Positions 54,601 to 57,600 of a DNA stretch of 64,000 bases are shown in pieces (position 1 is the first letter of the stretch; every line of letters starts with the position of its first letter). This DNA is from Lingula anatina. Its lineage: Eukaryota; Animalia; Brachiopoda. Below the pieces are notes generated by a model. It saw nothing but the letters and a program-made list of their open reading frames with translations, was not told the DNA's origin and did no database searches. The stretch lies in the NCBI GenBank assembly GCA_051362555.1, contig CM120640.1:23236225-23300224 (forward strand), given 5' to 3'. Position numbers and translations under genes: made by a program.

Positions 54601-57600
54601 TGGGATGTTATTATCTTAATTTCCAAACATTAACAACATTAACAAACATATCTATGAGGATTTTAAATAAAATTTAAACGTCTGTCTGTAACCGACAATT
54701 TATGCAGTTGATAACTGACACTTGGTAAATTGACAGTTGATGATGATGATTAAAATATTGACACTCAATACTGACAGTTGATACTGATGATCCAAGATGA
54801 AAGGACGTTAGCCTTCAGCCTTTATAACAGACAGTGGATACAGATAATTGATAAATTGACAATTGATATATCAGATTGACAATTGATATTGACATTGTTT
54901 ACAGAAATTGATAAACTGACACTGACAGTTGATAAATTGACACTGACACTTGATACTGACACTTGGTAAATTAGCAATTCATACTGATGGTTGGTAATGA
55001 TTGATAAATGATATATATACCCAGGTATGTGACCATAAAATGAGACAGTCACACTGAAATACACATTTTGGAAAAAGAAAGTCAAGTTATCCAAAAAATA
55101 ACAAATATCAGAAATAAAAAGAAGGAAAATCCCATTACAATATGTTGCAAAATTGTGCCCCTATTGTAGTTTACCAGTGATGTGAAGTTTGCATATAATG
55201 TTAGCTCTGCCATCCTATCTTCTAGATTTGACCACCAGCTCCAACAAATCATTTCAGGACAAGGTGATAGCTGATGCCTTATCTCTGCAGCACTCCTTCT
55301 CCCCACCCCATTGCTGCACCTGCTTGTCTTGATTTTTATCAACAATATAATTTTGAGTCTGCATAACCTCCCATTGAAACAAAATAGCTTTTTATTATTG
55401 AAAGCTATAATAGCAAGGCAAACATGTTAATTTTGTTATCCATAAAATATACAATATAGGTTTGTGATTTTAGTTTTGTCACATTGACCTAACATGCTGT
55501 TGCCTATTTTGTGAAGGAAAAACTTATTTTCATTATTGAACTCCATGCTGTTCTGCAGACTTCATATACTTGAATAGCCTCTTGCCATTCTATTTCCCTT
55601 ATGATCTATTGATTCTCTCTCTCTCTTTCATAAAAATTAGGGTGATGAGGAGAAAAAAAATGGGCTAATGCCGCTGCGTATGATGGACAGATCATTTGCA
55701 CATGAACTTCCTGATTCTCAGGTTAGCTGTGCACACTGGCTTGTCTTGCACATGACCTGTAGATGGTGGCCATGCACTTTGGAGTTTACTGCAGTTATAA
55801 CTTAGGATCCACAAATCTAACCAATTTATTTTGATGGATCCTAGTTATAACTGTGGGTGCACATAGATTAATTGCAATGCATTTTTGTGTTATTTTGTAC
55901 ATGTGTCCTTGTGGTTGTCTAATTTCATCAAAGATGTTACAATAATTTTGGTTACCATACATAGGGAGATGAGGAAAAGAAACAAGGTCTCACTCCAATA
56001 GAAATGATGGACAGGGATCGCAAAGATATGTTACCCCAGCTGGAGGTAGACAGCAGGAAAAATTATAATTAAATGGCCTAGTGTTTTTAGTTTTGATAGC
56101 ATTTTTGGTTTCATAGAAGAACTATATTAATAATATGAATCAAAGTTATGTGGCATTTATAATTTGATTTTGTTACACTTTCACACTAATACATTTTATG
56201 AATTCCTCTCCTCTAGGCCTAAATATAGATAAATAGACAATTTACTGTATTTTCTTTTATTCACCTTGTCTATATCAGTTATCTCTTTTAGATAGATCCT
56301 ATGCGATTGTTTTTTAATTTCTAAATAATGGTAGGAATCCAAATCCCCATTAAAATTTTATTTGCTTTAATTTATCTTTTTTTTTTCTTAACATTTAAAC
56401 CCTATGATTAATTTAACCAAAGAACTGGCTGCATATCAGCCTATGATGAAATTTGTGTAATGTATTTGTCTCAGTGCTGTTTTGTGGGTCTTTTATTTGC
56501 TTCCATTTATGTATGTCATTATTTTTATGTGTAACCGTCTAAAGTATTTAAATGGATAGAAAAGAAAAAATTTAAAAAACATGTTATATGTCAAAGCACT
56601 TTCTTTAAAAAGAAATGCAATTGTCCCCCACTTAACCAAAAGAATTCTAAAAATAGATAATGCCTCACGCCATGGATCATACAAGTACAAACTGTGCCTA
56701 CTTGACTGCAGTGGACAGTGGCAAGCTGGGGCACCACTGTCACAAGGCAATTATCTTTTTGACAATTTTGTGGTTGGGGAGGGGGTGGTGCACACATGTA
56801 AAGTAACACTCACATCACTGTTGAAAGAAAGTGCTTTGGCCTTAACATATCATATCTTGTGTGAAAATTTGGCTTTTCTTTGCTTTTAAGCATAAACAAA
56901 ATATTATTACTAAATACACTTATTGCCCCATACGGGCATCCATCATATTTCAGTATTTGCATTAAATTAAATTAAAAGAGCAATTTAAATCTGTAGCTTT
57001 GAGTATGAAACATTTTTTCCATTAAGAAAGAAAACATTAATGGCAATCCTCTGATCAGGTGTCCAAAATTAAATGAATAATAAAAAAATTAGTCTATGCT
57101 TATGCGAGCTAAAACTGGTTCAAATTTTAATATTCAATAACTTGTGCCCATTTTTTTTTCAGCTATGGGCTAATGATCTTTTAATCAGAGGATTGAAGTA
57201 AATAACCTGTATTTCCCCCAAAATTACTGAGTTCAGTTAAATGTTTGTAGATAATTTTCCTGCTCTGCTTTTCAGGTTGGTTTTCTGGTTGGTATTTGTT
57301 TACCATGTTATGAACTCTTGGCTCAGGTTCTACCTCCCACCTCTCCCATGGTAGAGGGTGCAAAGTAAGTGTTACAAAGTCAAGTTTTTCTTTATTGTTG
57401 CAAATTTAATTTTGAATTTCTGGTCTGAAATTGCACATAGCAGTGGAAGAGAGCAAAGAAAATTCATGTGGAAAGGGACAGTTACTGTATAAGGGCCTTC
57501 ATCATGCCACAATAAGTAAAGATGACCTTTAGTGCATAGACTAGTAACTATCATCTGTAAAAATTTCAACTGCATGCCAATAGTTAAGTTGGAATATGTA

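Follow-up and report, generated by a model that had tools for sequence, protein, structure and literature searches.

A PDE10-type phosphodiesterase gene of Lingula anatina with a glutamate exon at the purine-binding glutamine and its predicted substrate preference

Class I phosphodiesterases (PDEs) bind the purine of the cyclic nucleotide with a glutamine that is called invariant for the whole enzyme class. In the brachiopod Lingula anatina, a gene of the PDE10 (pde-5) type has three tandem exons, D1 to D3, the last of which ends with glutamate at this position. The locus raises the question whether the Glu is an error, a sign of decay, or the mark of an isoform with another substrate preference. 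The reading that we regard as probable, with modest confidence, is that the three D exons of this PDE10-family gene are likely spliced singly and that the D3 form is predicted to be an active enzyme that binds cGMP less tightly and so favours cAMP more than the Gln forms do. The window, which is the whole stretch of DNA analysed, is 64,000 nt long (contig CM120640.1 of assembly GCA_051362555.1, positions 23,236,225 to 23,300,224 of the forward strand).

Gene structure and the purine pocket

The gene is coded on the forward strand of the window and has the architecture GAF-GAF-PDEase_I (Table 1). The full-length RefSeq model P0121 maps along the window in tblastn and has two GAF stretches ahead of the catalytic domain according to Pfam. 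The signature exon is 100% identical to the L. anatina RefSeq protein P0005 and scores 95–97 bits against PDE10A, versus 69 bits against PDE2 and 65 bits against PDE5. PDEase_I was recognized with 263 bits in the Gln model and 266 bits in the Glu model (cut-off 24.8), and the metal-binding and catalytic His/Asp/Glu motifs are present. In a tree computed from the single-copy part (56 rows, two skipped, no vertebrate row), the orthologues form one clade apart from two PDEs of other families, and amphioxus models named PDE10A and pde-5 fall in the same clade as the Lingula gene. An AlphaFold2 model of P0005, the Glu form (pLDDT 84), has a TM-score of about 0.92 to PDE10A catalytic domains and is silent on side chains and ligand.

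Table 1. Exons and exon-like copies of the PDE10-type gene in the window; residues are numbered as in PDE10A
Feature	Position	Strand	Remarks
Whole PDE10/pde-5-type gene	18425..57960	+	tblastn of P0121, Pfam; start approximate
Second duplicated exon pair, GAF-B	40456..40938 (40456-40592; 40790-40938)	+	Both types recur in models of other species
Single-copy exon with HD..H.G..N metal-binding signature	50613..50819	+	Best solved relatives PDE10A
Exon C1, metal-binding Asp and purine-pocket helix	52339..52450	+	112 nt; Ser678, Phe693; junction reads
Exon C2, alternative to C1	53480..53591	+	112 nt; Met at 678 and 693; used by P0121; depth in RNA runs X12, X15, X19
Exon-like copy D1	54322..54402	+	81 nt; open frame, ends Leu-Gln; absent from every retrieved protein
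Exon D2	55641..55721	+	81 nt; ends Ser-Gln; used by RefSeq model P0121; C1-to-D2 reads; nemertean-type
Exon D3, M-loop of the catalytic domain	55965..56045	+	81 nt; ends Leu-Glu; used by RefSeq model P0005; low read depth
Single-copy exon E	57276..57364	+	Starts VGF (clamp equivalent to Phe729); junction to 57837
Last exon, coding part	57837..57960	+	Trp762 equivalent, acidic tail, stop; reads and mapping of P0121

The two C exons and the three D exons are each of the same phase and all bordered by AG and GT; the equal length and equal phase of tandem exons by which mutually exclusive clusters are recognized were found in both sets. The last codon is CAG in D1 and D2 and GAG in D3 (56043-56045), and the next exon starts with VGF at 57276, so that the coordinates and frames of the D-exon ends given in the preliminary description were confirmed. 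P0005 is composed of C1 and D3, and P0121 of C2 and D2. Two paralogous genes in Lingula were rejected as the source of these models, as the exons belong to a single gene and the two models hardly differ except in C and D. Because the last exon departs from both RefSeq models at a few positions, the window represents a different haplotype from P0005 and P0121. A sequencing error or private variant was rejected as the source of the GAG codon, since P0005 from a different haplotype shares the Glu, as do 37 exons elsewhere. RNA editing is unnecessary, as GAG is genomic.

Several other elements were noticed in the window. An optional micro-exon just upstream of the catalytic core (about 45522-45550, forward strand) is present in P0005 and absent in P0121, and a possible further micro-exon at about 37590-37615 is present in P0121. 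The intron preceding the catalytic exons holds a tandem duplication, about 212 nt long and apparently exact (49459-49889), with two identical open frames. On the reverse strand, 2934-4886 is a single open frame of 650 residues with a CABIT domain (E 1e-31) and a proline-rich tail, which we take to be Themis/GAREM-like.

Glu402 of P0005 aligns with Gln817 of human PDE5A1 in HMMER (counted on the printed alignment). In the same way, the Gln at position 685 of both C1 and C2 aligns with PDE5 Gln775, the residue that orients Gln817 in PDE5. The Leu-Glu of D3 corresponds to Gly725-Gln726 of PDE10A. A list of PDE10A2 active-site residues in the available text of a review (Val678, Thr685, Ala689, Ile692, Tyr693, Met713, Gly725, Gln726, Phe729, Tyr730, and Trp762; PMC12571622) matches the sturgeon PDE10A sequence by a manual count that starts at the end of the exon, and agrees with the earlier claim that the position is that of the purine-binding Gln. 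The C and D exons encode eight of the 11 residues in this list. Position 678 is Ser in C1 and Met in C2, position 693 is Phe and Met, respectively, and at 725-726 D2 has Ser-Gln where D3 has Leu-Glu; the Glu change is thus a two-residue change inside a swap of a 27-residue exon. Purine-binding Gln, invariant in class I, is encoded by D1 and D2, and Glu by D3. By its Gln exons the gene would be classified as a class I PDE and the predicted D3 product as an atypical form. The residues Gly725 and Tyr693 of the vertebrate PDE10A pocket are absent in the Lingula gene, which has Ser/Leu and Phe/Met instead; since they are missing in nearly all invertebrate orthologues, they would be a vertebrate trait and not a family trait.

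The view that D3 is the most canonical and undecayed copy held, as it is identical to the sturgeon PDE10A exon (P0004) in 17 of 27 residues, versus 14 of 27 each for D1 and D2. A decayed D3 exon was rejected in view of the open frame, the conservation of the Glu exon and the intact catalytic motifs. D1 ends with Leu-Gln and has Asn at 714, where nearly all others have Met; it may have reverted, represent an intermediate, or be out of use.

Splicing of the C, D and GAF-B exons

Raw reads of eight RNA runs with the same species label were searched (6–30% of each run; junction threshold three reads). The junction from the upstream exon to C1 was found in X15 (six reads), and that from C1 to D2, which skips C2 and D1, also in X15 (four reads), together with five loose ends matching the start of D2 in X16. 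The junction of exon E to 57837 was present in all four runs of one run set. No junction of D3, including the D3-to-57276 junction proposed earlier as a check, reached three reads in the eight runs; the same holds for D1, the reads of which are inseparable from intron coverage. The depth on D3 is 1.7–4 exon lengths in five of the eight runs and zero in three, and on D2 1.6–8.5 exon lengths in seven of the eight. On D3, it stands mostly apart from intron coverage in X15, X16 and X18, but not in X17. No variant row was found at 56043-56045 in the RNA runs, where the depth is too low to weigh much. These data suggest the use of D3 in Lingula, and we infer that this use is regular. The six combinations of C and D exons named in the preliminary description are not established: C1 with D3 and C2 with D2 are represented by models and C1 with D2 by reads, and the D1 combinations have neither model nor read support. 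The regions 51811-51851 and 56351-56385 draw many partially matching reads from elsewhere and are likely repeats, the depth of which is not that of this gene.

The D exons are presumably mutually exclusive. As they are 81 nt long, double inclusion keeps the frame and exclusivity is not enforced by it; double inclusion of C or GAF-B exons (112, 137, and 149 nt) would shift the frame. As for docking-site pairing, the 25 inverted repeats listed, out of 67, were AT-rich and likely due to chance, and no convincing element that would enforce exclusion was found among them. A hairpin-like inverted repeat was seen by eye at 55790-55855 in the 243-nt intron between D2 and D3; a role in splicing is conceivable, as is an origin as a small mobile element. 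A strict pairing of C choice with D choice is unsupported, as C1 occurs with D2 in Lingula reads, and C1 and C2 both occur with Leu-Glu in many molluscs.

The GAF-B exons 40456-40592 and 40790-40938 are likely mutually exclusive as well. Both types are present, as alternative forms or genes, in models of five gastropod and two nemertean species. GAF-B is the nucleotide-binding GAF of PDE10, and through this pair allosteric sensing may also be under splice choice.

Spread and history of the Leu-Glu exon

Altogether, 318 proteins were screened, and a pattern search located the D exon in 290 of them; the 28 dropped were fragments, shortened models, unrelated cluster members and pattern misses. 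Species counts are based on search matches and up to 15 members per cluster among the matches listed, in which bivalves and gastropods cannot be treated as independent. The Leu-Glu exon occurs in 45 of the 95 named species with an orthologue among the matches listed: in 22 of 22 bivalves, 20 of 21 gastropods, two of four annelids, and Lingula. Among the same matches it was found in none of three cephalopods, two nemerteans and one bryozoan, and in none of 41 species outside Lophotrochozoa. Of 42 further matches, mostly arthropods, 41 were readable and all 41 have Gln. The expected conservation of Glu in orthologous exons was borne out by 37 distinct Glu-ending exons from records other than the window (among the matches listed). 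The residue before Glu is Leu in all 37, and Leu precedes Gln in three of 47 exons, again among the matches listed.

The Glu is no oddity of one exon, as it first appeared: for 18 of 22 bivalves and 19 of 21 gastropods, the models retrieved among the matches listed show no D exon other than the Glu one, with unannotated Gln exons possible. Gln and Glu exons within one gene, as had been described for Lingula, were found in six species of three phyla including it (among the matches listed). Crassostrea virginica, Magallana gigas, and M. angulata have them in separate isoform models, with one D exon in each oyster isoform model. One model of Pinctada (pearl oyster) and one of Paralvinella (annelid) hold both, the Gln exon first and the Glu exon last as in Lingula; this double presence is likely an effect of annotation. 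The Gln and Glu forms of Bradybaena are paralogues and were excluded from the splicing count. Eight Logan-source proteins of relatives (391–918 residues, contigs of 2.5–4.2 kb) run through Leu-Glu into VGF, and the contigs are read as spliced mRNA because the gene is intron-rich and they nevertheless read through. C1-like and C2-like exons recur in oysters, scallops, mussels, clams, abalone, limpets, and nemerteans; C2-like exon types were also noticed in rotifers.

The five catalytic motifs are present in 163–164 of 164 Glu proteins and 121–124 of 124 Gln proteins, many of which are isoforms of the same genes. The remainder of the purine clamp (equivalents of Phe729, Ile692, Met713 and Trp762) is unaltered in the Glu forms. 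Named Glu species are without long branches in the gene tree; P0091 and P0252 are long-branch proteins with Leu-Glu and have no stable placement.

When the last two residues are left out, the four exons nearest to D3 are Leu-Glu exons of molluscs or unnamed sources, identical in 19–21 of 25 residues. D2 groups with exons of the nemerteans Lineus and Tubulanus (support 99/96). The exon tree of 25 columns is mostly unresolved; the Glu label needs six changes on it, and the starred branches force at least two. The exon order, the fixed Leu and the range of taxa suggest that the Glu exon arose once, by duplication in an early lophotrochozoan, and was lost later in some lineages; the exon tree does not demonstrate such a single origin. 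A Leu-Gln paralogue of two land snails (P0073, P0089), with His at 685, is nested in a Glu clade with support 99 and is likely a reversion from Glu to Gln. The same likely applies to the Cys-Gln exon of the tubeworm Ridgeia (P0064), which groups with an annelid Leu-Glu exon (88/78).

Substrate preference of the glutamate form

By the choice of exon, the residue bonding the purine would be replaced. A carboxylate would be unable to donate the hydrogen bond given by the Gln amide to guanine O6, though still able to accept one, and the fixed Leu beside the Glu likely repacks the surrounding pocket. As C1 and C2 would alter two more pocket residues (678 and 693), several pockets could be assembled by splicing. 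The same change was made in human PDE9A (PMC3069055), where Q453E raised the KM for cGMP from 0.113 to 2.8 uM (25-fold) and that for cAMP from 501 to 1233 uM (2.5-fold) and about halved kcat, with the enzyme still active. Efficiency decreased about 50-fold for cGMP and 5-fold for cAMP, the cGMP/cAMP ratio fell from 337 to 29, and the loss for cGMP was attributed to the missing bond to O6 (PMC3069055). A 60-fold loss restricted to cGMP is cited in the same paper for PDE5 Q817A. Because PDE9A Q453E is active and mainly loses efficiency for cGMP, an active and cAMP-leaning D3 enzyme is predicted. As a counterpoint, the result may transfer poorly to D3, since Glu406 adjoins the mutated residue in PDE9A, and the authors of PMC3069055 consider the Gln unlikely to decide between substrates. 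The obligate Leu may also fully compensate for the Glu.

From such compensation follows the strongest rival, which we hold unlikely: Leu-Glu would have co-adapted to do the work of Gln, with guanine N1/N2 read by the carboxylate or its protonated form, so that the preference stays or even moves to cGMP and the isoforms differ mainly in M-loop properties, rate or regulation. The Leu before every one of the 37 Glu exons and the Gln at 685 matching PDE5 Gln775 in both C exons speak for it. So does the fact that 37 of the 43 species of bivalves and gastropods among the matches listed show the Glu exon alone; in these the Glu form must therefore do the ordinary job of the gene. Moreover, a protonated Glu was proposed for the PDE9 mutant (PMC3069055), and the nematode orthologue works in cGMP signalling, its substrate being unmeasured according to the available text of PMC12346295. 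Against it, Gln and Glu exons were retained together in three phyla, which calls for a difference between them, and the one measured change from Gln to Glu cuts cGMP efficiency about 50-fold (PMC3069055).

It is improbable that the Glu form is a subunit of low or no activity, acting as a nucleotide-binding protein, a scaffold, or a brake on the Gln form within dimers. Q453E does cut efficiency for both substrates in PDE9 (PMC3069055), but the metal and catalytic motifs are kept in 163–164 of 164 Glu proteins, the named Glu species have no long branches, and for most molluscs no Gln form was retrieved among the matches listed, unannotated Gln exons being possible. A preference for a non-canonical nucleotide (cCMP, cUMP, or cIMP) is very improbable; in principle, an exocyclic amine could donate a bond to the carboxylate, but the equivalents of Phe729, Ile692, Met713 and Trp762 are unaltered. 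Just as improbable is that D3 is a rarely spliced relic in Lingula, with the Glu of importance in molluscs only: no D3 junction passed in eight runs, versus C1-to-D2 in two, but in two haplotypes the frame of D3 is open and its splice sites are intact, and D3 shares up to 21 of 25 residues with mollusc exons, has read depth in five of eight runs as against seven for D2, and is used in P0005.

Among known enzymes, vertebrate PDE10A and invertebrate pde-5 are closest to the Lingula gene in domain order, motifs, fold (TM 0.92) and signature exon. Vertebrate PDE10A has Gly725-Gln726 and Tyr693 in the available text of PMC12571622, whereas in the Lingula gene 726 is Gln or Glu and 725 Ser or Leu according to the D exon, 693 is Phe or Met, and 685 is Gln as in PDE5, differing from PDE10A. 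PDE9A Q453E (PMC3069055) is an active enzyme with the same change at the same position; it is artificial, belongs to a cGMP-specific family, has Glu406 adjacent and is without the Leu partner, whereas the Glu of D3 is natural, conserved, and selectable. The label of a glutamine switch used in the preliminary description is a misnomer, as the term (Zhang 2004, as described in PMC3069055) names a disputed rotation of one Gln side chain, whereas here the same purine-reading residue is replaced by exon choice and not rotated.

PDE10 and mutually exclusive exons are known kinds, and the natural conserved Glu exon appears to be new. Mutually exclusive homologous exons retune a binding site in FGFR IIIb/IIIc, pyruvate kinase M1/M2 and Dscam, likewise by tandem exons of equal length and phase that change a pocket; unlike in these, the exon choice in the Lingula gene would exchange a residue regarded as invariant throughout an enzyme class. 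The Glu sequences are already public in RefSeq, where automated annotation names them ordinary pde-5. In the available text of the open literature (subscription journals and supplements, the alignments of which could show Glu, lie outside this scope), we found no description of a naturally occurring Glu at this position, nor of alternative exons in the catalytic domain of invertebrate PDE10. According to the available part of a 2025 review, the substrate specificity of the nematode orthologue is unevaluated (PMC12346295), and PDE10 is not mentioned in the available portion of a paper on Schistosoma PDEs (PMC7430754).

In a wider reading, proposed tentatively and with slightly more doubt than belief, the Gln of class I would not be invariant after all: in clams and snails the principal PDE10 would use Leu-Glu, brachiopods, oysters and some annelids would choose by splicing, and cassettes of GAF-B, C and D exons, in up to 12 forms, would switch between cGMP-leaning and cAMP-leaning enzymes. 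The role of the Gln and the discrimination of cAMP from cGMP have been disputed since the glutamine switch was proposed. Isoform pairs with Gln or Glu, differing here by one 27-residue exon and kept across three phyla, would allow this discrimination to be tested on natural pairs. The same Gln anchors most PDE inhibitors, and for this reason mollusc PDE10 is predicted to have a pharmacology of its own. The PDE9 mutant showed a loss of more than 1800-fold for a selective inhibitor (PMC3069055). If confirmed, such a distinct pharmacology would bear on mollusc neurobiology, aquaculture, and the ecotoxicology of drugs.
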